From Ginglymostoma cirratum (lineage: Eukaryota): 64,000 bases of DNA. This document shows positions 8,496-59,766 of this stretch, piece by piece (position 1 is the stretch's first letter; every line of letters begins with the position of its first letter). Under the pieces are notes generated by a model. The model made no database searches, was not told where the DNA came from, and saw only the letters and a program-made list of their open reading frames with translations. The stretch lies in NCBI GenBank assembly GCA_024137785.1, contig JAHRHZ010000139.1:47128652-47192651 (forward strand), given 5' to 3'. The position numbers and the translations under genes were made by a program.

Positions 8496-9517
8496 CCTTT
8501 ATGTCTTATCCCTGCAACACCTTCCCCTCACTCAGCTGACTCTGTAACCATGTGACAACTTTTCCTTTTATTTGAAGGCCAAATATTGGAGTTGGAAGGG
8601 CAAAGAGCATGTGGCTGGATCGGGTAGGAGGTAGATGGTAGTTGGACAAGCCTGTCTTTCTACCTCCATTTAACGATGGGGTATGCGTGAGTTTTGTTTT
8701 TAAACAGCCATCTATTTGTTAAAGTTCGCTTTAACCCAGCACAACCAAGCGTTTGGTTTGTGCGACCTCATCTAATTGGTGTTGCAATTGGTGCACCTAA
8801 TTGGTGTTGCATTTTCCTAGACTTAAATCTTTCACCCATTGGGCAAACTCCAGAATCCCACGCCTAAAGGATGCCTGATTTTTTTACTAAGGATGGAACT
8901 GCAGAAGTGTAACTCCATCACTCACTCGTCAGTATGGAGAGGTTAAGATGGCTTTCAAAGATCTCTCAACCACTTATATAGGTCTTTTTTAAAAATCTTT
9001 GTCTTTGTGGTTATTTCCGGTCAGTTGTAGGTTCGAGGCTACGGGATAGTGTTCTGTACTAGAACAGAATCTAAATTCTACACGTTTTAGATTCCTTTTG
9101 AAGCGATGTTTTGAATACACTCCTGTGGAATGCTATGAGATCTTTATCCATGACAAAGTTTATAGAATGTAAATTCCACTACTTAAATGTGGTTGCAGGT
9201 ATATCTTTATGTCTCATACAAATAAAATAGGTTTTAAATGTGTGTAATTCTGTCGTTGTTTTGGTGACGTGCAGAGCCTGGGGCAGTGCATTGGCCGTCA
9301 TCTGACTACATTTGATCCAAAAGGAAGCAAAAACCTCCTGACCACCTTAGCTTTGGACCAGGAGATCAAAGCATTTATTGTCAGACCTGCTACAATTAGA
9401 ATTATACAGCCCATTAACATTGGCATTGGTAATGCCTGTTCATAATCAAATGCGGAGTACTTGTTGACACCTCCTAAGAAAGGGTTATGGGGGGAAACCC
9501 CCCCCCCCAAGTTATTG

Positions 9518-9682
9518 ATAACACAGGGTGGAGCTGGAGGAGCGCAGAAAATTTTCTGAAGAAGGGTCCTGACCTGAAACGTCAACTTTCCTGCTCCTCT
9601 GATGCTGCCTGGCTTGCTGTGTCCCTCTAGCTCTACACTGTGTTACCTCTGACTCCAGCATTGGCCGTTCTTACTACCCCTT
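9518..9682 (+). mobile_element. Penelope-like terminal fragment with minimal hammerhead core, 9-bp TSD and inverted partial copy
   Basis: CTGAAGA(9556-9562)-AGGGTCCTGACCT-GAAAC-GTC(9581-9583); flanked by AAGTTATTG at 9509-9517 and 9683-9691; 9517-9547 is an inverted copy of ~9618-9648. Confidence 0.7.
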
Positions 9683-10865
9683 AAGTTATTGCTCTGCCCT
9701 ATTACCAGAGATTTAAGTAGTTGTTTTTATCAGGTTAAGTATTGACCATTGGAATACTTTTGACCCAAGTACAGGAGTCCCACCAGAGAGCTCCCTTGGA
9801 GGTTTGCTACAATTCAAGTAAGTTGGTGTACCCTGGCAGTCAGAGTGACAGCAAAACATGGGGGTGGAGGGCATTTAAAACCAAATTTTGAATATCGCAG
9901 AAAAAAGGTGCTCGATGATTCAGAAGTGCTCCTGGGGTTGTCAAGTCTCAACATTTCTAGTGTGTCTCCCCCGCCCCACCAACTCCAATTACTTAAATAC
10001 TGCATATTTGTGCTGTCTTTAAAGTCAATAACACATAATTAATTCTTTTGCTCTATTGCATTTAATGAGCACTTGACCCACTTACAGAACACACAAGCAG
10101 CCTCACGTTGATGTGCGCAGCACAAAATGTATGCTTTAAATTGTGAATGCTGTGTTTACTGAGGTGTTCTTTTCGCTTAGACAAATAAGATACACAATTT
10201 GAGCTAAAATTAGAAATGTCATAATTATTGTGCACAGTAACTTCATCCATCTGTGAGAATGGAGGAAATATTTAGTTGGATTGCCTTTTGGTGAAGGTGC
10301 TTCTAATCATCAAACAGTTTTTAATTTTAAAATATTGGCAGAAATTTTGTTCAGGGAGCCGTAAACACACTCAGTGGCAGATTGTCACCAGTCTTCATTT
10401 AATAAGCAAAGGTTTCCTCCGAAGATGCAATAATCTAAGCGTACAAGATTTATATACAATAACGTTTGAAAATGTGGAAGTGATATTAAAAGAAGACAGT
10501 GCATTTTCTGCAGCATTTTTGCACTTGCCTGGATTGTGCTGTCCAGTATTGAATCATTAATAATTTCTTTTTAGGCGAGACCAAGTATGCAAAGAAAACC
10601 ACCAACTTAAATTTCAGTTAGATGCCAGCCAGTGTAGGGACTCTGTACACTTTTTTCCGCAATTGGGTGACTTGAGTATTGAATTCTCTTATCGTCAGTT
10701 CCATTAGTAAGATTTGCAAACAGACTCTGACGTTTTATTCTCCCTGTCTCCTTTTTATTTGTACTGATATTGAATGGCAGACCCATCCCAAGGGCTGACT
10801 GATCCACTCCCTCTCTCAATTTTTATGTTAGAAACTGAATGGTCTATTATGAAGTCCAAAAGGAA

Positions 10866-11608: not shown

Positions 11609-11799
11609 GCAAAATACTGTTGTATTCGAAATCTGGAGCAAACACAGAATGCTGGAGAAACTCAGCAGGTCTGGCAGCGTCTGTGGAGACAGAAATCAAT
11701 TACGTTTCAAGCTCAATTCTTAAGAAGAGTCATGTTTCTCTTTTCACAAATACTGCCAGACTGGCTGAGTTTCTCCGGCATCCTGTGTTTTGCTTTCGA
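11609..11799. mobile_element. palindromic (head-to-head) Penelope-like short element
   Basis: Arm ~11638-11696 (GCAAACACAGAATGCTGGAGAAACTCAGCAGGTCTGGCAG...) is the reverse complement of ~11734-11793; the spacer has degenerate hammerhead pieces (ACGTTTC, CTTAAGAAGAGTCA). Confidence 0.7.
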
Positions 11800-18990: not shown

Positions 18991-19103
18991 TTGTAACAGT
19001 TACTTGTATTGACCTTTTGAGGATATTAACATAAGGCTCTGTTTGGGTGTGAATTGTCAAGCTGCAGCATTGTTGTAAATTCTGTTCTTGTTTTCCATCT
19101 CAG

Positions 19104-19308
19104 GCAAAATGTGAGCCCAAAGCCACAATGGTGAAACCCAAGAATAACAGCAGCAACTGCAAAAATCTCTCGGCTGACGAAAAATCCAAGGCTGCTGCTG
19201 ATGAAGAATGCAGAGCTGAAGAGCAAACGTTCCTCGTCACTCTCTACAAATACATGAAGGAAAGAAATACACCAATAGAAAGGATACCATACCTTGGGTT
19301 TAAACAGA
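19104..19308 (+). CDS. ARID5B: ARID5B exon 6: AKCEPKATMVKPKNN...ECRAEEQTFLVTLYKYMKERNTPIERIPYLGFKQ (start of ARID domain)
   Basis: Acceptor TTTTCCATCTCAG, donor A|GTAAGT, 205 nt (phase 0 to 1); ARID signature. Confidence 0.97.
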
Positions 19309-21086: not shown

Positions 21087-21279
21087 ACCTCCTGCTGTAT
21101 ACATACGCTACCAGTTGAAGGAGTAACCAGTTAGCTAGCGAAATGACTAGCTGTCCTGGCTGCAGGAGGTATAGGATTAACCAGAGACCAAGATCTTCAG
21201 ACAGCTGGTCATGTCAGTAGCTAACTGGTTCCTCCTTCAACCGGTAGAGTATGTATCTCTCTGACTAATCCTATACCTC
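21087..21279. mobile_element. miniature element with DIRS-like ITR / ICR / right-extension architecture
   Basis: 57-bp inverted repeats at 21099-21155 and 21200-21256 (50/57 match); internal 21166-21187 is complementary to 21258-21279 (20/22); ACCTC occurs at both ends. Confidence 0.55.
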
Positions 21280-21799: not shown

Positions 21800-21989
21800 G
21801 AGGGAATGTGGGCATCACTGGCAAGGCCAGCATTTGTTACCCAACCTTACTGCAATTGAACTGAATGACTTGCTAGGCCATTTCAGGGGAGAGTTAAGAG
21901 TCATCTGCTATAGGTCAGGAGTCACATGTAGGCCAGACCAGGTAAGGATGGTAGATTTCCTTCTCTAAAGGGCATTAGGGTACCAGATG
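21800..21989 (-). mobile_element. tRNA-derived SINE 3' half (family of 38395-38835)
   Basis: GAGTCACATGTAGGCCAGACCAGGTAAGGATG is identical to 38479-38510; tail GGAATGTGGGCATCACTGGCAAGGCCAGCATTT. Confidence 0.75.
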
Positions 21990-22086
21990 CACAAACAGAA
22001 ATTGCTGGAAAAACTGAGCAGGTCTGGCAGCATCTGCGGACAAAAAGCAAAATTTAACATTTCAGGTCCAGTGACCCTTCTTCAGA
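21990..22086 (-). mobile_element. Penelope-like terminal fragment with hammerhead core (second subfamily)
   Basis: Minus strand reads TCTGAAGA-AGGGTCACTGGACCT-GAAAT-GTTA...GCAGATGCTGCCAGACCTGCTCAGTTTTTCCAGCAATTTCTGTTT. Confidence 0.7.
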
Positions 22087-25627: not shown

Positions 25628-25700
25628 GCCTTCTTAGCACAGTAGGCAACATGTTAGTCTCATAATCTGAAGGCCCTGAGTTCAATCCTCAGAGAACGCA
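25628..25700 (+). pseudogene. elongator tRNA-Met(CAT) copy, CpG-decayed (probable pseudogene)
   Basis: 73 nt, GCCTTCTTAGCACAGTAGGCAACATGTTAGTCTCATAATCTGAAGGCCCTGAGTTCAATCCTCAGAGAACGCA. Anticodon CAT at 25661-25663 (position 34), colinear with vertebrate tRNA-Met-e, with a C:C mismatch in the acceptor stem. Confidence 0.85.
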
Positions 25701-25711
25701 AGCTTGCAAAA

Positions 25712-26041
25712 GGGGCAGCACAGTGGCTCAGTGGTTAGCACTGCTGTCTCACAGTGCCAGGGACCCGGGTTCGATTCCACCCTCGGGCGACAGTCTGTTT
25801 GGAGTTTGCATGTTCTCCCCGTGTCTGCGTGGGTTCCCTCTGGGTGCTCCAGTTTCCTCCCACACTCCAAAGATGTGCAGGCTAAGTGGATTGGCCATGC
25901 TAAATTGCCCATAGTCTGCAGGGATGTGTAGATTAGGTGGGTTGTAGGGGGATGGGTCTGGGTGGGATGCTCCAAAGTTCGATGTGGACTTTTTGGGCCA
26001 AGGCCCTGTTTCCACACTTCAGGGATTCTATGATTCTATGA
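25712..26041 (+). mobile_element. HE1-type (V-SINE) elasmobranch SINE, full length
   Basis: tRNA head with A box TGGCTCAGTGG and B box GGTTCGATTCC, V-domain GGAGTTTGCATGTTCTCCCCGTGTCTGCGTGGGTT, and a CR1-like tail ending in (GATTCTAT)n. Confidence 0.9.
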
Positions 26042-29410: not shown

Positions 29411-29691
29411 TATTGTGAGCTCTGCCAGTAGGGGCCCACAGTCTTTACCTATGGAGCTGAGAAAGAAAAATCTTGGACACCTCTACACCAGGCAGTTATT
29501 AAACACCGAGGGGTAGCTGGCTTGTTAGCACAGTGGATTGTTCTTAAAGTATTTGTATCTGATAATTTGTTTTTATATATAGTACAAATGGTGCACTTAA
29601 TGCTGGTGCTTGAGCTCTATAAATGAATACAGTTGCGATGTTTCTATTTCCCCATAATTCTTATTTTTGCACATATTGTCCTTTATAACAG

Positions 29692-29744
29692 TTAACCTTT
29701 GGACCATGTTTCAAGCCGCTCAAAATCTCGGAGGATATGAAGCG
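29692..29744 (+). CDS. ARID5B: ARID5B exon 7: (I)NLWTMFQAAQNLGGYEA
   Basis: Acceptor CTTTATAACAG, donor GCG|GTAAGT, 53 nt (phase 1 to 0). Too short for the ORF track; matches human INLWTMFQAAQKLGGYET. Confidence 0.96.
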
Positions 29745-30944
29745 GTAAGTCCAATATTCCCTTGCTAACGATTACCGCTCTGTAACTTTGCCCTTTTCAG
29801 CCTTGTCATTCAGAACCTTGTATAAATAAACAGCGGCTCTGACGAATTCTTAGAATGGCTGTAACCGTTCTGTATGTGTTTATAGAATCATTTTTTTTTT
29901 TGCACAGAGACTAGAGATTAGATCCAGATTTAGAATGGAGCAGATTTATTGTAAAATGCTATAAGTGGAAAACACATGTAACAGCTCCTCTGTCAAGGAA
30001 AAAAAGTGAGCTCTGTAATTTTTTCCCATGTTGCCTCTCAAAGGGGACAATTATAAAACCAAGCCAAAACTGGAGGAAGGAATTTTTAACTTGGCTGCTT
30101 GCTTTGCATCTGTTCATTTGTAATATGGGAAAGTATTAATGGCTGCAAAGTGAGTCAGTAATGGTTGTTAAAGAATTGGAAAGACCATTTGTCAATGGTT
30201 CCTTTGACAAGCTAATGTGGAATATTAAGACCCATCAGTATAATGAGGAAGGAAGTCCACTTCTTTTACATGTCTGGTCAGTCAATATGATTGAGTTACA
30301 GTCTGCGCATTACATAGCCCGTACTTTTTGACATACTGTTAAATGTCTGACAATAACTACTCGTACAGGAACAAGCTGCGTTTTATTTTTTTTTTAAAAA
30401 AGGCTTGACTTCTAACTCATCATTGCTCAGCCTGAGTTTGAAAGTTGTTGGGTCAAGTCCCTCTCCAGGAATTCAAGAACATAACCCAGACTGGCCCCTC
30501 CAACGCAATACTGAGGGAGTGCTGCATGGTCACAGGGTTGTCTTTTGGGTGACATAAGTTGCACTGTGCTAAAACCCATTTTCTCAATGCTGTTTTCATA
30601 CAGGGCTTTTATACAGAACTGGTTGCTGTGTGGCTGGGTTTCCCCATTTGTCAGAGGGTTTTTGTTTGTGATGGTGTAACGGTGTATGTTGTAGTTGTCT
30701 TTCAAGAATGCAATAAGTACATTAATTGGCAACTGTTGTGAATCACAGATGACTCATGAAAAAAAAGCTTTACAATGATCTAGCTATTCCACTCAATTCC
30801 ACTTATGACCGCACCTAGTGCAGAATCTTAGAAACAGTGTTCCAGGTGAATCAGGTGACCACGGGAAGTTCCTTGTGCAGCGGTCACCTGAATGTTAAGT
30901 CTCAGGCTGCCAATTAACACTAGGTTTTACTCTGATTGTAACAG

Positions 30945-31042
30945 ATCACTGCCCGTCGACAATGGAAGCAGATATATGATGAATTGGGCGGCAACCCTGG
31001 AAGTACCAGTGCAGCAACGTGCACTCGCAGGCATTATGAGAG
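30945..31042 (+). CDS. ARID5B: ARID5B exon 8: ITARRQWKQIYDELGGNPGSTSAATCTRRHYE(R)
   Basis: Acceptor TGTAACAG, donor AG|GTAGGA, 98 nt (phase 0 to 2); ARID helix-turn-helix with the GSTS loop. Confidence 0.97.
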
Positions 31043-31139
31043 GTAGGAATCGGATCAGCTTACACGTCACGCAGGCCTTCTTTCTGTTTGACTTTTTGTT
31101 GTAAAGTATATTGTGGGTTTCAGCACCTTCAACACCAGG

Positions 31140-31304: not shown

Positions 31305-32742
31305 TGACAGCCACAGATAAGGCACTGGAAGACTGGAAGGTGGCTAATGTGCCTTTATTTAAGAAAGGCTGCAAGGAAAAGCCAGGGAGCTGTAGACCAG
31401 TGAACATGATATTAGTGGTGGGTAAGCTATTGAAGAGGATTCTGAGGGACAGAGTTAACATGGATTTGGAAAGGCAAGGACTGACTAGGAAATAATGAAC
31501 ATGCTTTCGTGTGTGGGAAATTGTGTCTGACAAACTTGGTTGAGTTTTTTTTTTGAAGAGGTGACAAAGAAGATTGATATAGACAGAGCAGTAGATGTCT
31601 GTATGGACTTCTTCAAAGCGTTCGACAAGGTAGACTGGTGATAAGGTTAGATCGTGTGGGATCCAGGAGAGCTGGCAAATTGAATACAAAATTGGCTTGA
31701 AGGTTGGAGACAGGTGGTGATGGAGGGTTGCATTTCAGACTGGAGGCCTGTGACTCTTGGTGTACCACAAGATTCGGTGCTGGCTCCACTGTTTTGTGTC
31801 ATTTATACAAATGATTTGGATGTGAAATAAGAGGCATGGTTAGTAAGTTTGCAGATGGTACCAAAATAGTGTACTGAACAGTGAAGAAGATTATCCCAGG
31901 GTACAATGGGACCTTGATCAAATGGGCCATTGGGTGGCCGATGGAGATAATTTAGATAAATGTGAGGTGTTGTATTTTGGTAAGGCAAACCAGAGCAGGA
32001 CTTCTACAGTTAATGCTAGAGTCCTGGGGAATGTTGCCAAACAAAGGGACCTGGGGTGCCGGTGCATAGTTCCTTGAAAGTGGAGACACAGGTAGACAGG
32101 GAGATGTCGAAGATAGTTGGCATGCTTGCCTTTATTGGTCAGAATATTTGAGTATAGGAGTGGGGACGCCATGTTGTGGCTGTACAGGATGTTGAGGCCC
32201 CTTTAAGAATACTGCATTCTAAGTTCTGGTCTCTATACTGTTGGAAAGATGTTGTAAGCTTGAGCGGGCACAGAAAAGATTTACAAGAATGTTGCCAGGA
32301 CTGGAGGGTTCCAAGTTACAGGAAGAGGCTGAATAAGCTGGGGCTATTTTCCTTGGAGTGTCAGAGACTGAGTGGTGACCTTATTGAGGTTTATAAAATT
32401 GAGGGGCATGGGTAGGATGAATAGCTAAGGTCTTTTTCCTAGGGTGGGGTAGTCCAAAACTAGACGACATATGTTTAAGGTGATACAGGAAAGATTTAAA
32501 AAGGACCAGAGGAGTAACTCTTTCACATAGAGGGTGGTGCATGTATGGAACAAGTTGCCAGAGGAAATGGTGGAGTCTAGTACAATTACACCATTTTAAA
32601 AGGCACCTGGATGGGTACATGAATGGGAAAGGTTTAGAGGGATATGAGTGAAATACTGGTAAATAGGCCTATATCGGATTGGGATGTCTGGTCAGCATGC
32701 ATGAGTTGTACTGAGGGTCTGTTTCCATGCTGTATGACACAG
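31305..32742 (+). mobile_element. CR1 LINE, 5'-truncated and decayed
   Basis: EDWKVANVPLFKKGCKEKPGSCRPV, decayed RT (TTTGCAGATG), RLNKLGLFSLE, and tail GGGTCTGTTTCCATGCTGTATGAC. Confidence 0.92.
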
Positions 32743-34013
32743 TGGAGTGCTAGTTAATCTTGGGGTGGTAAATTTGAAAGGAGCATCTGGTTTTTGGAAA
32801 GCTTGATACAACACCCATTATTCCGAGTGCGTCTTCAGCATTTGGTACTGAGCTGAATTAATATCAGCCACCTCTTTGATTGTATTTGATTTTATTACTG
32901 CTTTTCTTCTGGCAAGCTGTCAGACTCTAAGATGATCTGCTCGTGGTGGAAGCTGATGGATTGGCCTGATTTAGGGATGTTTTTCTTGGGGGGGGGGGGG
33001 GGGGGCCCAAAAAAAAGCAGTGGCTGGCTCTGTGAAAGCTACTAATTCAGGCTGTGCTACAGCACTTTAAAATGATTAAATGGGGCAGTGGATTGTCGAG
33101 ATGAATTGTACTCAGTTTCAGAACATGCACCAAGCCCTCTGTTTATTTTCACGTGGCTTGTTTTGCATTCACTGCAGAATGAATTCATTTGATTTTTCTT
33201 TCTTGTGATGTGGTCTTTAATGCTGGATGGAAGCTTTTAGTTTAAGCAAAGCAGGAATAAATTAATGCTGATGATTTCACTAATGTCCCTTAGGCTTAAA
33301 CTGGTCCAAGCCTGTCTCTAGTTTGTTTTAATTCAAATCAGCTCTGATACTCTATAAGTAAATGGCTTAGTCAGCCTTAATTTGCTCAAAAGCTATCCAT
33401 CATTGTCAGAATATATTACAAATTACCAGCCACTTGGCTAAAGTTCTTCACTGCTCCAAATTTAATTAGTTGGATTCCTGATGATTAACTGTAAATCAGC
33501 ACTGATGAGGTGCTCTCAGTGAGATGCTGCTAAGAGTATGTTTAACGTTAATTTTATTCAGCCCTGTAATTAGGTTGTAAACATGGATCTGTTTGAGTTA
33601 ATATAAAAAAAGCACAAGTAGTACTGTTGCAAACTATTCAAGGGATCTGTAATAAGCAAATGGACTGCAGAGTGTTGCAAGATCTGAAGAGAAATCTCCT
33701 TTATTTGAATCATTAAGAGATCCATCAGCCTGAGGATTTAATGCTACAATTTCTACAATTTGTAGATAGGATAATTCTCTCTGCATGCCTAGAACTTGGC
33801 ATATGGTCCACCCTGTGTTGGCCAGTCTATCGATCTCCTCCTCTGAGTAATACAGAGGAGTTGGTTCAGATTTCAATGTATTGCCTGGGCCTTATATCAT
33901 CCAATTAACTGCAATGTTAGGTGGCCAGGTCTTTGTAGCAACATGGAACCTCCCTCAAAGAGTTATTCGAAGAGACCATGACAGACTGAAAAGAATGCTT
34001 TCAATTTGCTTCC

Positions 34014-34148
34014 ATTTCTGAAGAAGGGGCCCGACCTGAAATGTCAACTTTCCAGCCTCTCTGATGCTGCCTGGCCTGCTTTGTTCCTGCAGCTCCACAC
34101 TGTGTTATCTTTGACTTCAGCATCTGCAGCTCTTGCAATCACTTTCAA
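34014..34148 (+). mobile_element. Penelope-like terminal fragment with hammerhead core
   Basis: CTGAAGA(34018-34024)-AGGGGCCCGACCT-GAAAT-GTC, followed by the same body as the 9.55 kb and 38.55 kb copies. Confidence 0.7.
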
Positions 34149-34174
34149 CATGCAAAATCTGTTGTGATGAAACA

Positions 34175-34800
34175 ACTTGCCTTTATTGGTTAGTGCAGTG
34201 AGTTTAGGAATTGGGAGGTCATGTTGCAGCTGTACAGGACATTGGTCAGGCCACTTTTGGAATACTGCGTTCAATTCTGGTCTTCCTGCAAAAGGAAAGG
34301 TGTTGTGAAACTCAAAGATTCAGAAAGGATTTACAAGGGCCTTGCCAGGGTTGAAGGGTTTGAGCTACAGGGAGAGGCTGAATTAGCTGGGGCTATTTTC
34401 CCTGGAGCATCAGAGGCTGAGGGGTAACCTTATAGATGTTTATAAAATCATGAGGGACATGGATAGAGTGAATAGTCAAGGTCTTTTCTGCTGAGTGGGG
34501 GAGTCCAAAACTAGAGGGCATAGGTTTAGGGTGAGAGGGGAAAGATTTAAAAGAGACCTAAGGGGCAACTCGTTACACAGAGAATGGTGTGTGTATGGAA
34601 TGAGCTGCCAGAGAAAGTGGTGGAGGCTGGTACAATTGCAACATTTAAAAGGCATCAGGATGGATTTATGAATAGGAAGGGTTTAAAGGGATATGGGCCA
34701 GATGCTGGCAACTGGCGCTGGATTGATTTAGGATATCTGGCCAGCATGGACGAGTTGGACCGAAGGGTCTGTTTTCATTCTGTACAGCTCTAGGACTTTA
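34175..34800 (+). mobile_element. CR1 LINE 3' fragment
   Basis: MLQLYRTLVRPLLEYCVQFWS, VWNELPEKVVEAGTI, and tail GGACCGAAGGGTCTGTTT. Confidence 0.92.
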
Positions 34801-36632: not shown

Positions 36633-36822
36633 AGAGCAAAACACTGCGGATGCTGGAAATATGAAACAAACGCAGAGAATGTTGGGGAAACTCAAGAGTT
36701 GGCAGCAAGTGTGATGAGAGAAATGGAGTTAACATTTCCAGTCTGTTTTGAGTCTTCTGGAACTGAAGAAGAGTAATTCTGTTCCTATCACCACAGATGC
36801 TGCCAGACCTGCTGAATTTCTC
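36633..36822. mobile_element. palindromic Penelope-like short element
   Basis: GCAAAACACTGCGGATGCTGGAAAT...TTGGCAGCA on the left arm, CTGAAGAAG at 36763, and the inverted arm CACAGATGCTGCCAGACCTGCTGAATTTCTC. Confidence 0.65.
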
Positions 36823-36966: not shown

Positions 36967-37214
36967 TGCCAGGGACCCGGGTTTGATTCCACTGTCTGGC
37001 AACTGTCTGTATGGAGTTTGCACATTCTCCCCGTGTCTGCGTGGGTTTCCTCCCACAGTCCAAAGATGTGCAGGTTAGGTGGATTAGCGATGGAAATGTA
37101 AGGTTACAGGGATAGGGTAAGGGGGTGGGTCTGGGTGGGATGCCATTCGGAGGGTCAGTGTGGACTCGAAGAGCTGAATGGCCTGCTTCCACGCTGTAGG
37201 GATTCTATGATTCT
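36967..37214 (+). mobile_element. HE1-type SINE, 5'-truncated
   Basis: Closely similar to 25755-26040, including the GGGATTCTATGATTCT tail. Confidence 0.88.
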
Positions 37215-38394: not shown

Positions 38395-38835
38395 CTCGTG
38401 GCATATGGGTGTTGCTGTCTCGTCCAGCATTTAGTGACCATTCCCTGGCACTGAGTTGACTGCATTGCTTTGGGTCTGGAGTCACATGTAGGCCAGACCA
38501 GGTAAGGATGACAGATTTCCTTCCGGAAAGCATATTGATGAACCAATTTCTGAAGAAGGGTCGAGGCCTGAAACGCCAGCCTTCCTGCTCCTCTGATGCT
38601 GCTTGGCCTGCTGTGTTCATCCAGCTCTACACCTTGTTATCTTTGATGAACCAGATGATACTTTATGACAATCGCTGATAATTTCACCGCGGGGTGACTG
38701 AGATCACCTTTATGTTCCAAATTTATTAATTGAATTTAAATTGTACCAACTGTTGTGGTGGGATTTGAACCAGTATCTGCTGAGTATTAGCCTGGTCTTC
38801 TGGATTGCTAATCTGGTGACATTACCACAATGTCG
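38395..38835 (-). mobile_element. tRNA-derived SINE, interrupted by a Penelope-like insert
   Basis: Minus-strand head with B-box GGTTCAAATCCCACC (38757-38771); body shared with 21800-21989. Confidence 0.75.
38546..38642 (+). mobile_element. Penelope-like hammerhead fragment with 11-bp TSD
   Basis: TTGATGAACCA at 38535-38545 and 38643-38653 flanks ATTTCTGAAGAAGGGTCGAGGCCTGAAACGCC... Confidence 0.75.
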
Positions 38836-44400: not shown

Positions 44401-44720
44401 CTTCCTTTCCCCTGAGTTGAGAAAGACCAAAGAAGAATCTGTCTTGTGGTCTTGAATGTTGATTTTTCACCATCATTTTGCCTCCCATTGACCAAAAGCA
44501 GGAAAACCACAGAGAATGCAAAGTATTTTCCGAGGCCTGTCTGCTTGCTGCTGTCTGGTGTGTTTCTCTGTCTGAACTGCATCTTCTCCTCACCACCCCA
44601 AATCTTGGGAATCCCTTTTGCTTTTACAGACGGTGACCTAGCATTTAGTAAGGACTGTGGGCTGGCTGTATGTTCGCCAAGTCTCTCTCTCTCACCACGT
44701 CTGTTTCATGACTGTTTCAG

Positions 44721-44919
44721 GCTGATCCTGCCGTATGAAAGATATATCAAAGGGGAGGAGGACAAGCCTTTGCCTCCAGTCAAGCCTCGGAAGCAGGAGA
44801 GCAGCCCTCCAGAGAGTGAGAGCAAGGTGAGGGCAGCTGCAGCCAAACGGAAGATGGAACCAAACCGAAAAGTGAAAAGAGACCGAGACGTTGTTCAGAA
44901 AGTGAAAGAATGTTCTGAG
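44721..44919 (+). CDS. ARID5B: ARID5B exon 9: (R)LILPYERYIKGEEDKPLPPVKPRKQE...VKECSE (end of ARID domain)
   Basis: Acceptor CTGTTTCAG, donor GAG|GTTAGT, 199 nt (phase 2 to 0); matches human RLILPYERFIKGEEDKPLPPIKPRKQE. Confidence 0.96.
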
Positions 44920-47582: not shown

Positions 47583-47887
47583 GGTGGCTCAGTGGTTAGC
47601 ACTGCTGCTTCACAGCGCCAGGGACCCGGGTTCAGTTCCACCCTCGGGCAACTGTCTGTGTGCAGTTTGTACATTCTCCCCGTGTCTGCGTGGGTTTCCT
47701 CCCACAGTCCAAAGATGTGCAGGCTAGGTGGATTGGCCATGGGAAATTGCCTGTAGTGTTCAGGGATGTGTAGATTAGGTGAGTTATAGGGGGATGGGTC
47801 TGGGTGGGATGCTCTGAGGGTCAGTGTAGACTTGTTGGGCCAAAGGGCCTGTTTCCACACTGTAGGGATTCTATGATGATTCTGTGA
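47583..47887 (+). mobile_element. HE1-type SINE
   Basis: GGTGGCTCAGTGGTTAGCACTGCTG head, V-domain, and CTGTAGGGATTCTATGA tail; close paralog of 25712-26041. Confidence 0.9.
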
Positions 47888-48654
47888 CATGTGCATTCAC
47901 CTGCATCTGAAGGCATCGTTCTCAATGTGGACTGGCTACCAGTGGGCACTGTTTGAGAGTGGCAAAGCACAGCTTGTGAGATCACTTCTCACCGTATAGG
48001 GTTAGGTGTTTGCTCTTATACTTAAGGAATGGAGAGAAGTTCATTGCTGGAAATAATTGCATACTGCAGCAACCCAAATAAAATACGACACAGAGAGAGG
48101 TACCAAGAATGTACACTACAGATGTTAAACATGCCCAGATTTGTGCAATGCACACATACGTTACTGACACGTCTGGACTTCCTCACATTAAACATTAGCT
48201 CCTGTTTAAACATAGTTGAATGTTGTATCACTTTCAGTTAATTCATATCAGATCTAGAGAGAGTTGTTTTCCAGGCAGAAACAGAGGTGACTGTTTAACA
48301 TTGTGGAATATTCCTCAGCACTCTGTAGTTTGCTCATCTGTCTGGTATTTTTCATGCAATTCCATAGGCCCCTGAGAGACAATAATATTTGATTGAAGTG
48401 GGATCACAACTTGACCCCCCCCTTGCCATTTTAACTTGGCAGCAAAAAACGAGACCTGAAACCTGTGCAAAGTCGAAAACTGTAATAATATTTGTAACAT
48501 TACCACCACTTTATGTTTTCCTGAATACTTCTTTGGAGCTTAAGAAGGAAGGTGATGTTTTAAATTTTATGGGGGTCTCCTGCTGTCTTGAGAAATTCTC
48601 ATTTCTTGCAGTTGACACATGACTTGTATCTCTGTGGCAGAGCTTTATTAAGCA

Positions 48655-48850
48655 AATCAGAAACATAACATACAAGAAATTCTCAGCAAGTCTAGCAGCA
48701 CAAACAGAGAGAGAATCCAAGTTAATGTTTCAAGTCAGTGATCTGTCGTCAGAACATTGGGTCATTGACCCAAGACTTTACCTCTGTTTCTCTCTCTGCA
48801 GATGCTGAGTGTTTCCAGATTTGTAGCATCTACAGTATTTTGCTTTTGTT
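48655..48850. mobile_element. palindromic Penelope-like short element, degraded
   Basis: Minus-strand core CTGACGA-CAGATCACTGACTT-GAAACATTA (48722-48752); inverted arms CAGAGAGAGAA / TTCTCTCTCTG; ends CATCTACAGTATTTTGCTTTT. Confidence 0.6.
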
Positions 48851-54562: not shown

Positions 54563-57340
54563 GACATGAAGAAGCCATTCGGCCTATTGTATCCATGCTG
54601 GTCATCAAACATCCAGCATTTGACCCATAGCCTTGTATGCCGTGATGTTTCACATGATCATCTACATACTACGCGACTGTTGATGGTTCTCACCTCGACA
54701 GTCTTATCAGGCAGTGAGTTCCAGATACTCTCCACCCTCAGGGTGAAAAGATTTTCCTTAAATCCCCTCTAATACTCATGACCTTCATTGAGATCTATGG
54801 TACTTAGTTATTGACCCTCTACTAGGGGGAAGTGTTTCACATTATCTGCCCTGTCTTTGCCTCTCATAACTTTGTATACCTTAATCAGTTTATCCCCTCA
54901 GCCTTCCCTGCTTTAAGGAAAACAACCCCGTCATCTCTAGTATCCCTTCACAGCAAAATCACTCCAGCCCAGGCAACATCTTGCTGGATCTCCTCTGAAC
55001 CCTCCCTAGTGCAGTCACATCCTTCCTATAGTGTGGTAACTAGAACTCCTCACAGCAGTCTGGGTGTGGCCCAAATAATGCTGTATACATATCTATCATA
55101 ACCTCCCTGCTCTTGTATTCAAGGCTTTCACTTCAGTTGTGGGTAAAGTGTTGGAAAGGATTATAAGAGATAGGATTTATAATCATCTAGAAAGGAATAA
55201 TTTGATTAGGGATAGTCAACACGGTTTTGTGAAGGGTAGGTCATGTCTCACAAGCCTTATTGAATTCTTTGAGAAGGTGACTAAACAGGTGGATGAGGGT
55301 AAAGCGGTTGATGTGTATATGGATTTCAGTAAAGCGTTTGATAAGGTTCCCCATGGTAGGCGATTGCAGAAAATTTGGAGGCATGGGATTGAGGGTGATT
55401 TAGCGGTTTAGATCAGAAATTGGCTCGCTGTAAGAAGACAGAGGGTGGTGGTTAATGGGAAATGTTCATCCTGGAGTTCAGTTACTAGTGGTGTACCACA
55501 AGGATCTGTTTTGGGGCCACTGCTGTTTGTCATTTTTATAAATGACCTGGATGAAGGTGTAGAAGGATGGGTTAGTAAATTTGCGGATGACACTAAAGTC
55601 GGTGGAGTTGTGGATAGTGCAGAAGGATGTTGCAGGTTACAGAGGGACATAGATAAGCTGCAGAGCTGGGCTGAGAGGTGGCAAATGGAGTTTAATGTGG
55701 AAAAGTGTGAGGTGATTCACTTTGGAAGGAGTAACAGGAATACAGAGTACTGGGCCAATGGTAAGATTCTTGTTAGTGTGGACGAACAGAGAGATCTCGG
55801 TGTTCATGTGCATAGATCCCTGAAAGCTGCCACCCAAATTGATAGGGTTGTTAAGAAGGCGTACGGTGTGTTAGGTTTTATTGGTAGAGGGATTGAGTTT
55901 TGGAGCCATGAGGTCATGTTGCAGCTGTACAAAACTCTGGTGTGGCCGCACTTGGAGTATTGCGTACAGTTCTGGTCACCGCATTATAGGATGTGGAAGC
56001 ATTGGAAAGGGTGCAGAGGAGATTTACCAGGATGTTGCCTGGTATGGAGGGAAGGTCTTATGAGGAAAGGCTGAGGGACTTGAGGCTGTTTTCGTTAGAG
56101 AGAAGGTTAAGAGGTGACTTAATAGAGACATACAAGATGATCAGAGGATTAGATAGGGTGGACTGTGAGAGTGTTTTTCCTCAGATGGTGGCGGCTAGCA
56201 CGAGGGGGCATAGCTTTAAATTGAGGGGTGATAGATATAGGACAGATGTCAGAGGTAGATTCTTTACTCAGCGTAGTAAGGGCATGGATTGCCTTGCCTG
56301 CAGCAGTAGTCACCAACATTAAGGGCATTTAAATGGTCGTTGGATAAACATATGGATGATAATGGAATAGTGTAGGTTAGATTGGCTTCAGATTGGTTTC
56401 ACAGGTCGGCGCAACATCGAGGCCGAAGGGCTTGTACTGCGCTGTAATGTTCTATGTTCACTATTAAAGTCAAGTATCCCATATGCCTCCTTAACCATTT
56501 TATCCACCTGCCCTGTTGCCTTCAGGAATCTATGGACGTGCATATTAATCTGTGCACTTCCTAAGGTCCTACCATTCATTAAGTACTCCCTAGATTTGTC
56601 CTCACAAAAGCATCACCTCACACTTACCAAAATTGAACTCTATTTGCAACTGCTCTGCCCATCTTATCAGCCTGTCTATATCATCCTGTAGTCTAAGGCT
56701 TTCTTTCTGTCTATTTACCACACCATCAGTTTTCATGTTATCTGTGAATCTGTTGATCGTACGTCTGACATTCATGTCTGGATCACTAATGTACACGACA
56801 AACAGCAAAGAAACTAACTCTGAACCTGTGGTATGCCACCGTGTGTGAACTTCCAGTCTCAAGAACAACCATCACTCTAACCTCTGCCATTAGGCCAACT
56901 TTGGGTCTGATTTGCTAAATTGCCTTGGATCCCATGGACTCATAGATTCTTAAGTTCTGCATGGTAGACTAGTTATCAAAACCTTTAATGAATTTCATGT
57001 AGATTACACCAACTGCACTACCTTCATCGACACACCTAGTCACCTTCTCGAGAAATTCACTCAGATTTGTTCATGCGGTATCTCTTTGACAAAGCCATGT
57101 CCACTATCTCAGATTAATCCTTGCCTCTCCAAGTGAAAATTAATTCTATCCCTCAGAATTTTTGTAGTAATTTCCCTACCATGGATGATAGACTCACTGG
57201 TCCATAGTTTCCCTTTTGATCCCTACCACCTCCTGGAATAATGGTACCAACATCAGCTGCCTACCCCTTCTGTGACCAGAGTGGATTTGAAAATTAATTT
57301 CAGGGCCCTGCAGTCTCCTCCCTTGCCTCCCACAGCAGCC
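54563..57340 (-). mobile_element. CR1 LINE (host) in two parts: 54563-55126 and 56463-57340
   Basis: Minus-strand CR1 peptides LQDDIDRLIRWAEQLQIEFNFGKCEVM and KATGQVDKMVKEAYGIL; 3' tail near 54565-54600. Confidence 0.85.
55133..56458 (+). mobile_element. young CR1 (HER1-like) LINE, 5'-truncated, RT domain nearly intact
   Basis: QHGFVKGRSCLTSL, YMDFSKAFDKV, GVPQGSVLGPLLF and FADD (55580-55591); one in-frame TAG at 55409-55411 and a later frameshift; (TGTTCTA)n tail; TTCACT at both ends. Confidence 0.95.
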
Positions 57341-57585: not shown

Positions 57586-59766
57586 GCAATTGCGGCCACA
57601 GAGGGAAGCCGAGAAATGGACAAATGGAGAGCAGACATGGCCCTGTCAAGGGATGGGGTGGTGACACAGACTGAGACTGGAGAAAAGGAGCAGGACAAGT
57701 GTGATATCTCAGAAGGTTCAGTCGGCAAAGGGACGCAAGCCAAGGACAAAGTCAGCAAGGCAAACGGTGAGCAGTCGAATGGAAAGGAGGCTGAACTGCT
57801 ATCTTTGCACCAGGGCCTCACGGCCCATTCGACAGACATAGTGGTACAGAGCCAGGCAGAATGCAAGGCCACCTTGGCATCCTGTCGGAATCACGAATCA
57901 CCACAACAGCCCGTGGACAGGCTGGCAAATGATCTTCAGGAGAAACTTGCCAGTGCAGTAGCTGTGACAGAGAAGGAAGCGGAGAAAGGATACCTGTCTG
58001 ATCAGGGCTCGAATGCAGTGTCACCAGGAGCTGCCAACAGCTCCGTTCATTCCGATCATTCGTCGAAGGATGAGGTTGAGAATTGGCCAGGGGGCCTCCG
58101 GCCCGAAAGCGGCCAGAGACTGCCACCAGGGCAGGCAGGGAAGGGTAACCCGAATCTCTCACCTGGACCCCTCAAAGAAAAGGAGGAATTGCTTGTTACA
58201 ACAAAAACTGAGGCTTGCCCCAGCTACTTGCCCCTGGTCTACTCCAGGGGTCACCCTGGCATCATGTCACCACTTGCCAAGAAGAAGTTCTTGTCTCAGG
58301 TCAGTGGGTCTTTGCCCAACAACTATCCAATTGGAGCCCCACCTCCGCTGGTTAGTAGTAAAAAATGTGGTGAGGATGCTGAAGAAATGGTTACAGCGGA
58401 GAGTAATTTTTTACAAGGCTCCACGCCAGAACAGCTGGCCATCAATCGACCTTCTGTGATTCAACATGCACATAGTTTTCAGAGAAGAAACACTGATGAG
58501 CGAGGGGATGCATTGAAACATGATGGCTTGAATAAATTGTCTGATTCTGAGGCAGCCTATCTTTCTAAGCATCACCTCAATTGCTCAGAATCATTCAAAA
58601 GCCGCGCTTCTTACCCTTTCACCTCTGACCCTATAGACAATGAAAATAAAGGTTCTGAGAAGAAAGGTTGCCAACCATCACAAGTGTCAAGTTTTCTAGC
58701 AGACTTCTACTCCTCCCCCCACCTACACAATCTTTACAGACACACAGAACATCATCTTATTAATGAGCACACGTCAAAGTACCTGAGCACGATCATGAAA
58801 GATAAAAATTCTTCGCTTTTGCAGAATAAAAACCAGGATGCGGTCTATTTAAGGCATCTTTCAACACTGCACCGGTCAGAAAAGAAATGTGCAGTGAAAC
58901 ATTCTACAGAGGAGCAGCCCACCGACTTGAGTCTTCCAAAGTTAAAGAAAACGCTACCCAAGAGCTCATCAAATAGTGCCGTTCATTTACCATCACCACT
59001 AGACATCAAGAGCACAACAGCAAGTACACAGCCAGCACATACTGACTGCAACCCCAAAGCTTGCCGTGTCCCTCCAATGCCAATACCAACAACCACCAAG
59101 AGTGGTGAAGCTGCCCTACCCGCCTCGACAAAGCTGGAGGAAGGGGTCAGACCCGCGATCAGCTCCAAAGGAGGTTCACAGATCATCGGGAGCTCTAAAC
59201 CCATCAAGAGGAACCGAGAGGGCACGGACAATGGCAGCAACCAGAGCCCGGAGAAGAAACTCCGGGCAGTGTCTCCCATGCCACTGGCAAAGGAGTTGGC
59301 ATTGAAGGAAAAGCCAGCTGATTTGGAAGGGGAGAGCAGCAAAAACCAGAGTTCTGGGATTATCCTAGAGGGCCACAAGTTTCCATTGCCAACCCCGATA
59401 TTCCCAGGCGTGTATCCTGGAGCCTTCGTATCTCAGGTTCAAGATATGTGCGATGGCCTGGGCTCAGCATTTCCAGTTGACTATGCTCATCCCTTACAAT
59501 ACTTGAAGAATCAGGCTGTGCTGTCACCTCTTATGCAACCATTGGCCATCCATTCCTTCATGATTCCAGCGATGCAGAGACAGATTCTTGCTTCAACCGG
59601 TGCCTCCCCACAATTGTACAGACATCTGTCCGCAGCTGCTGCCCCAGTCGCAGCCTCTTACGGGGATCTTTTGCACCATAGCCTTTATCCTTTAGCTTCT
59701 CTGAACCCACAGGTCGCCTATTCCACATCACCAATATCTTCTCTACATCCCAGCACAAAACTATAA
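57586..59766 (+). CDS. ARID5B: ARID5B terminal exon 10 (726 aa + stop), with PTDLS CtBP-type motif and conserved C-terminus
   Basis: Acceptor TTTCTTTTTGTTGCTTAG, in frame with ORF 57616..59766; blocks GIMSPLAKKK, RPSVIQH, FLADFYSSPHLH, QPTDLSLPK, PKACRV, LQYLKNQ.VLSPLMQP and HPSTKL* match human ARID5B. Confidence 0.98.
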   Translation, partial: AIAATEGSREMDKWRADMALSRDGVVTQTETGEKEQDKCDISEGSVGKGTQAKDKVSKANGEQSNGKEAELLSLHQGLTAHSTDIVVQSQAECKATLASCRNHESPQQPVDRLANDLQEKLASAVAVTEKEAEKGYLSDQGSNAVSPGAANSSVHSDHSSKDEVENWPGGLRPESGQRLPPGQAGKGNPNLSPGPLKEKEELLVTTKTEACPSYLPLVYSRGHPGIMSPLAKKKFLSQVSGSLPNNYPIGAPPPLVSSKKCGEDAEEMVTAESNFLQGSTPEQLAINRPSVIQHAHSFQRRNTDERGDALKHDGLNKLSDSEAAYLSKHHLNCSESFKSRASYPFTSDPIDNENKGSEKKGCQPSQVSSFLADFYSSPHLHNLYRHTEHHLINEHTSKYLSTIMKDKNSSLLQNKNQDAVYLRHLSTLHRSEKKCAVKHSTEEQPTDLSLPKLKKTLPKSSSNSAVHLPSPLDIKSTTASTQPAHTDCNPKACRVPPMPIPTTTKSGEAALPASTKLEEGVRPAISSKGGSQIIGSSKPIKRNREGTDNGSNQSPEKKLRAVSPMPLAKELALKEKPADLEGESSKNQSSGIILEGHKFPLPTPIFPGVYPGAFVSQVQDMCDGLGSAFPVDYAHPLQYLKNQAVLSPLMQPLAIHSFMIPAMQRQILASTGASPQLYRHLSAAAAPVAASYGDLLHHSLYPLASLNPQVAYSTSPISSLHPSTKL

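Follow-up and report, generated by a model that had tools for sequence, protein, structure and literature searches.

Minimal type-I hammerhead ribozymes (min-HHRs) in the pLTRs of metazoan Penelope-like elements (PLEs) were described by Cervera and De la Pena (2014, PMC4209133), whose text presents them mostly as single dispersed motifs of truncated PLEs, including fish Neptune and Poseidon, and does not make an Rfam match part of their definition. EN+ Neptune-type PLEs, as set out in the main accounts (Craig et al. 2021, PMC8557442; Arkhipova et al. 2013, PMC3846280), have one ORF with reverse transcriptase (RT), a CX2-5CxxC linker and, at the C-terminus, a GIY-YIG domain, together with pLTRs from partial tandems, an inverted 5'-truncated arm, solo pLTRs, a 30-40-bp tail on one end and 8-10-bp target-site duplications (TSDs). 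The linker separating RT from EN is given as a mark of Neptune and Nematis (PMC8557442). For Poseidon of Anolis carolinensis (PAc), the published results report two internal RT start sites bounding the tail, a hammerhead near the unit 5' end whose cleavage is not needed for insertion, and uncleaved RNA as the dominant substrate in vitro (Frangieh et al. 2024, PMC11167929). Metazoan non-LTR retrozymes are described as short, non-coding and pLTR-related, with type-I, mostly canonical hammerheads in tandem 150-450-bp units that are expressed as circles (Cervera and de la Pena 2020, PMC7229834; Li et al. 2026 preprint).

The elements reported here share all of the listed traits of the Neptune-type PLEs. 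With PAc they share the paired, here predicted, RT start sites, the hammerhead position and an apparent independence of insertion from cleavage. PAc belongs to a different clade from our families A and B; its ORF is reported to start inside stem II and its RT sites to lie in the ORF (PMC11167929), whereas here both classes of 3' end lie before the ATG. With retrozymes they share the type-I hammerhead, the short non-coding form and the relation to pLTRs, but they are dispersed monomers or head-to-head pairs, unlike the tandem retrozymes.

We analysed a 64,000-nucleotide window of the Ginglymostoma cirratum genome (contig stretch 47128652-47192651; assembly size 4.36 Gb). A first-pass annotation had reported seven related short elements in at least two subfamilies, three plus-strand copies with a common start, and a location in ARID5B introns with some copies in sense, and each of these claims was borne out. 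All seven loci were matched by profiles made from copies elsewhere in the genome, and they split into family A (9518, 34014 and 38546) and family B (11609, 21990, 36633 and 48655), which are related to each other. The sequence TTTCTGAAGAAGG occurred exactly three times in the window, at 9553, 34015 and 38547. The gene was recognised as ARID5B from a match to the MRF-2/ARID5B structure and from homologues of the last exon that carry this name; a search of the last exon against solved structures returned no match. Exon matches run from 19092 to 59763 on the plus strand, and three earlier ARID5B exons were located 78-116 kb upstream of the window, which makes every one of the seven elements intronic; the three family A copies are in sense orientation. 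Element density was one per 9 kb in the window versus one per 5.2 kb in sampled DNA elsewhere. The 9-bp TSD and the inverted partial arm proposed for the copy at 9509-9691 (family A, hereafter the focal copy) were also confirmed in the sequence. The features are listed below, with units numbered from +1, the A four bases before CUGA.

9509-9517, plus strand: left TSD of the focal copy, AAGTTATTG (sequence, TSD test)
9518-9547, minus strand: inverted tail-less partial arm of the focal copy, corresponding to about +69 to +98 of the unit in reverse complement (sequence)
9552-9682, plus strand: family A main arm of the focal copy, pLTR from predicted +1 through a tail of about 30 nt (unit search; profile match 9553-9679)
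9552-9587, plus strand: minimal type-I hammerhead motif (sequence; descriptor passed)
9552-9555, plus strand: 5' strand of stem I (sequence)
9556-9562, plus strand: CUGAAGA, followed by one extra A (sequence)
9564-9575, plus strand: stem II of 4 bp, with a G10.1-U11.1 wobble from CpG decay (sequence)
9576-9580, plus strand: GAAAC (sequence)
9581-9583, plus strand: GUC, predicted cut after 9583 (sequence)
9584-9587, plus strand: 3' strand of stem I (sequence)
9683-9691, plus strand: right TSD of the focal copy, AAGTTATTG (sequence, TSD test)
11609-11794: family B head-to-head pair with the core lost; arms 11627-11709 (minus) and 11734-11794 (plus) (profile match)
21990-22086, minus strand: single tail-less family B arm, inserted in another repeat (profile match)
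22085-22056, minus strand: hammerhead core of the 21990 copy; passes the descriptor, with G-U replacing G10.1-C11.1
34014-34141, plus strand: family A arm with tail and a stem II mismatch (profile match 34011-34141)
33998-34004 and 34142-34148: candidate 7-bp TSD of the 34014 copy (TSD test)
36639-36822: family B head-to-head pair, decayed, core lost; arms 36639-36766 (minus) and 36757-36822 (plus) (profile match)
38546-38642, plus strand: tail-less family A arm whose cut triplet is GCC (profile match 38543-38646)
38535-38545 and 38643-38653: 11-bp TSD of the 38546 copy, inside a host repeat (TSD test)
48652-48849: family B head-to-head pair with a decayed minus-strand core (reads ACAT); arms 48652-48756 (minus) and 48759-48849 (plus) (profile match)
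19092-19307, 29676-29750, 30945-31043, 44719-44916 and 58033-59763, plus strand: ARID5B exon matches (sequence match)

The inverted arm at 9518-9547 is the head-to-head arm typical of PLE insertions, and it paired with the main arm in the computed fold (z -3.5). At the four family B window copies, the TSD test found no duplication longer than 5 bp.

To place the unit within an element, we searched the genome with the family A unit, which gave 2297 candidates; 40 were scored and 30 fetched. Nine of these 30 loci had common upstream sequence, and in three of the 30 (L004, L009 and L010, which are L031-L033) a broken ORF lay directly upstream of the unit, with remnants of RT, linker and GIY-YIG. 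Among the 30 top family B loci, the ORF end lay just upstream of the unit in six and the ORF start lay downstream in four, and RT, linker and GIY-YIG remnants directly preceded 17 of the 137 insertions in the genome sample described below. In other copies the unit continued into the ORF start, with the ATG at +160 to +175, and it was thus found both at the 3' end and before the ORF start, the arrangement of a pLTR. Since the unit follows an ORF with RT and GIY-YIG and also leads into the ORF start, the 100-135-bp unit is the pLTR/tail of autonomous Neptune-type PLEs, and the PLE origin that had been suggested held for both families.

The RT and EN assignment of the broken ORFs is a prediction from homologues. 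A 384-aa ORF piece had 19 protein matches (best E 5e-100, 48% identity); the four of these that were scanned all carried RVT_1 and GIY-YIG, both curated cut-offs being passed by one, and residues 205-929 of an RVT_1 + GIY-YIG homologue aligned along the fetched copies. The ESM Atlas returned RT-domain clusters at 0.97, and a direct Pfam scan of eight stop-free PLE ORF pieces returned no match. The L032 and L033 translations contained a Cys-x4-Cys-x2-Cys linker before the predicted endonuclease, which would assign them to the Neptune clade, a mark shared with Nematis. In one long PLE copy (L031:1033-5043) the inverted arm was 5'-truncated, measured 1.4 kb and ended at unit position 96, which is the stub architecture at a larger scale.

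We then compared the motif with the published min-HHR. The elements here share with it, in the features given by PMC4209133, CUGANGA, one extra nucleotide before stem II, G10.1-C11.1, GAAAC-GUH, palindromic 15/16, the lack of helix III and what appears to be a short stem I; stem II is 4-5 bp here versus 7-8 bp in the Schistosoma families. The host, families A and B and a pile-up of 5' ends at the motif front are not described in the text of that paper. A minimal-hammerhead descriptor that requires no stem I matched at 30 sites in the 718,367 unmasked bases of the sample; 28 of these sites belonged to families A and B, and each of five shuffles had none. The motif is therefore not due to chance. 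In the window, the hits at 9556 (plus) and 22085 (minus) passed, both with G-U for G10.1-C11.1, and the other five of the seven copies failed. A scan of the window with Rfam at E<=5 gave five matches, none of them a hammerhead. Single-strand folds of five window motifs and two others were no better than shuffles (z -0.14 to +1.45), and the focal hammerhead at 9552-9587 was not the minimum-energy fold.

Conservation was assessed in 95 aligned motifs of 98, three with N, a deletion or a truncation being left out. All 12 core nucleotides were kept in 56 of the 95 arms, and G10.1-C11.1 and C15.2-G16.2 were kept as well in 25, so the reading as a minimal type-I hammerhead was upheld at family level; in the window, the focal motif at 9556 has all 12. 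Core positions outside CpG were kept at 0.88-0.98, similar to the flank, while G12, a core CpG position, survived in 48 of 59 family A arms and 24 of 40 family B arms; the core thus does not stand out from its surroundings, and its CpG positions decay. The GAAA(C/T) variation that had been noted is present and is mostly CpG decay. Subfamilies differed within the motif at N7, loop II, a stem II U-A/U-G pair and stem I. Helix pairs formed in 80.9% of cells versus at most 45% when slid, and copy-level covariation was not above shuffles, its score being reached by 46 of 500. The earlier caveat that stem I is unconvincing applies to the window copies, where it is weak, but at family level stem I appears to be present: it reads AGUU/AACU (4 bp) in B, forms three of four pairs in the focal A subfamily and is paired in 72% of cells overall. 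The family-level core, the extra nucleotide, G10.1-C11.1 and the palindromic 15-16 fit the published minimal type-I hammerhead. Paired helices and a core kept at family level, together with CpG decay, point to source elements that carried the published min-HHR and inserted copies that drift neutrally. The lone mutated hammerheads in the ARID5B introns are probably inert.

Two descriptor hits lay outside families A and B, at L056:9173 (plus) and L146:8694 (minus); the former looks like a putative third minimal-hammerhead family with a different stem II. An older subfamily (L148:4956, L059:901, L066:7131, L200 and L213) starts AGTCCTGATGA and has GACT after the cut site; in it a stem I C-G pair replaces U-A (3 cells), and the start edge of its L213 copy is the same as in families A and B.

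For the wider genome we took 100 stretches of 10 kb at arbitrary places, of which 26 were wholly N, leaving 718,367 bases. This sample, not strictly random since a second batch was placed near readable stretches, held 182 arms in 137 insertions (one per 5.2 kb), from which a copy number of about 8e5 is extrapolated. Head-to-head pairs made up 45 of the 137 insertions, with a tail on exactly one arm in 39 of the 45, and arm 3' ends formed two clusters at about +95-110 and +126-137. TSDs of at least 8 bp, some of them up to 21 nt from the mapped element end, were found at 31 of 127 testable insertions versus 2.5 in shuffled pairings; by class, they were found at 22 of 44 pairs, 7 of 31 sharp singles and 2 of 52 other singles. 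The inverted 5'-truncated arm, the tail on one end and the TSDs are structures known for PLEs (PMC8557442, PMC3846280, as far as described there). Solo units are here far more numerous than ORF copies, and a TSD of their own (8-16 bp) flanks many of them, unlike some A. vaga solos that those papers suggest to be recombination leftovers; the solo units here are therefore insertions and not such leftovers.

The arm starts were sharply placed. We found that 64 of 182 arms started at -4 to +5 and 6 of 182 at +28 to +38, where a cleaved template would end, and 10-nt windows around +1 held 8, 67 and 20 starts. The element boundary, previously put at the hammerhead core, is thus the front of stem I and not the cleavage site. 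Counted per insertion, 57 of 137 started at -10 to +5, 43 further upstream and 37 later; given the 43 that reach upstream of -10, read-through, tandem or circular templates must also exist. The DNA before the 64 sharp arms was an inverted arm in 36 and unrelated flank in 28, and a promoter in none. Since this upstream DNA resembles neither promoter sequence nor the corresponding DNA of other copies, elements were truly inserted with this edge as their boundary.

Long copies showed what precedes the edge. In family B, 12 of 16 had TATAAA at -29, then TCAGTT, and in family A, 7 of 9 had a TATTTA-like word at -31 to -33 and CCAAT near -100. These words have the textbook readings of TATA, Inr and CCAAT boxes; each family supplies a single observation of them, and the box of family A departs from the canonical form. 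The A. vaga Pen2a pLTR is likewise reported to have a putative TATA plus Inr (PMC8557442, PMC3846280). We also gathered copies of the ORF start, using queries that lie entirely downstream of the unit and leaving out the query's own copy. In this set, 12 of 29 A and 5 of 29 B copies began at -10 to +5 without a promoter; the others began further upstream (5 A, 12 B) or later (10 A, 6 B) or had no unit in front (2 A, 6 B). Two of the 17 edge-starting ORF copies stayed shared to the end of the fetched flank and the others ended after 196-1566 bases, which suggests priming inside the ORF, an outcome that later insertions could mimic. Because starts pile up at the front edge of the hammerhead, ORF copies stop there and a TATA-like box lies about 30 nt upstream, this edge is likely the transcription start and the copied RNA was likely uncleaved. 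A cap-derived extra G at -1 was not enriched (12 of 49 versus a 21% background, p=0.34). Contigs from presumed RNA runs had loose ends at the genomic boundaries, where they would not reveal a start, and were left out of the evidence. Among family A copies starting at +2, 26 of 33, the focal copy included, had an extra T replacing A+1, perhaps by junction microhomology. We considered and rejected a 3' splice site at +1, which D. virilis Penelope has: no common upstream exon precedes the sharp copies, and the AG is part of many B copies.

We favour the reading, with a probability of roughly 0.8, that the elements are separately inserted, decaying end-pieces (the pLTR with or without its tail) of two autonomous Neptune-type PLE families, likely produced by RT that initiated within the 5' portion of an uncleaved mRNA and copied to the predicted 5' end of that mRNA at the hammerhead front. 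The steps from transcription start onward we infer as follows. The 3' UTR of one unit would likely drive transcription from +1 into the next unit. By analogy with PAc in vitro, the element protein would nick DNA and prime RT internally, and the two 3' end classes would mark the places where RT starts, like those mapped in vitro for PAc. Priming near +100 or +130 of the 5' copy would leave a stub ending at +1, and a second priming would add the inverted arm; copies with upstream sequence would need read-through, tandem or circular templates. Stubs, which have no upstream promoter, would be dead on arrival. In D. virilis, however, the Penelope promoter is reported to be internal and to have no TATA box (PMC2377424), and some promoter activity could thus persist in stubs.

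A more specific proposal, which we put forward tentatively and at a little under even odds, is that the mRNA starts at the first base of stem I, with the ribozyme in its cap-proximal 36-38 nt. Internally primed RT, from the 5' tail sites or further into the ORF, would run off the cap and paste hundreds of thousands of TSD-flanked stubs, and the hammerhead would not make template ends but serve as a switch, gated by protein or by dimer formation, that takes the cap off the element's own mRNA. Work on dimer cleavage by Lunse et al. (2016/2017) is cited in PMC6765202. If the proposal is true, the genome is an in vivo record of uncleaved integrated templates.

The best of the alternatives, although we consider it unlikely, is that the stubs arose as ordinary 5'-truncated copies, with priming at the 3' tail of full-length RNA, and that the pile-up at +1 was caused by RT pausing or template switching at the folded hammerhead or at an A/T run and not by a transcription start. 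Most PLE insertions are indeed described as 5'-truncated (PMC8557442; preprint discussion), and the inverted junction at the edge in 36 of 64 sharp arms and the missing cap-G signal are compatible with pausing. RT would however meet the structure from its 3' side (about +27 to +37), where few ends lie, and the edge coincides with TATA/Inr spacing in both families. The ORF-start copies, which approach the motif from the side of the ORF, also end at this edge; since pausing there would affect them as well, their edge separates the two readings only in part.

Still less probable is a dedicated non-autonomous retrozyme- or SINE-like family, in which transcripts of short master copies would be cleaved as dimers by the hammerhead, form circles and be moved in trans by the PLE protein. 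The very high copy number and the copies' own TSDs would suit such a family, and the preprint traces animal retrozymes back to pLTRs and reports that one chondrichthyan has some (10.64898/2026.07.22.740005, as far as its text goes). Against it, head-to-tail tandem repeats with a hammerhead per unit were found neither in the window nor in the sample: the 182 sampled arms held three same-strand neighbours, none a head-to-tail full-unit array, in 0.7 Mb, which is compatible with rare tandem retrozyme loci elsewhere. Ends do not lie at the cleavage site, and the stubs have no upstream promoter. Short and long copies interleave on trees (92 columns, few supported forks), where short copies did not form their own lineage; label changes numbered 17 in A versus 18.0 shuffled and 12 in B versus 10.6 shuffled, and family A similarity was 0.82 between short copies and 0.83 between short and long. 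The separate non-coding retrozyme-like family of the first-pass annotation accordingly gave way to terminal repeats of autonomous PLEs. That the intronic copies are functional ribozymes cutting or regulating ARID5B pre-mRNA is very improbable: three A copies are in sense and the 9556 core is complete, but this motif has the G10.1-U11.1 wobble, a weak stem I and no stem III, is not the predicted fold and has its nearest sense partner 24 kb away and defective, the core is unprotected among copies, and minimal hammerheads are described as not cleaving as monomers (PMC4209133).

Minimal hammerheads in PLE pLTRs have been described before, as have solo copies, inverted arms and tails, and in these respects the finding is ordinary. 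A literature search, which covered neither Repbase/Dfam nor paper supplements, found no report of families A and B or of stubs starting at the transcription start; such supplements, for example the chondrichthyan families of the preprint, may already contain A and B consensus sequences. The insertion ends bear on the PLE hammerhead's role, in that across hundreds of thousands of copies they avoid the cut site and pile up at the predicted start. They give genome-level support to the in vitro finding of an uncleaved RNA template, and exact positions for 5'-end mapping.

Other repeats in the window were also recorded. The 21990 (B) and 38546 (A) copies lie at a nearly identical position in one host repeat, 21906-21985 matching 38466-38545, and similar flanks occur at locus L015 and in the TSD of L063; the shared site may be a preferred target or merely an abundant repeat. 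A SINE-like repeat has three window copies, at 25628-26034, 36968-37211 and 47617-47877, with a tRNA-like sequence (Rfam 34.7 bits) directly before it, and we take it to resemble the shark HE1 SINE. LINE-type RT fragments, presumably CR1-like, lie at 55412-56071 (Pfam RVT_1) and 31700-34800 (repeats), and an inverted repeat with 57-nt arms lies at 21099-21256.
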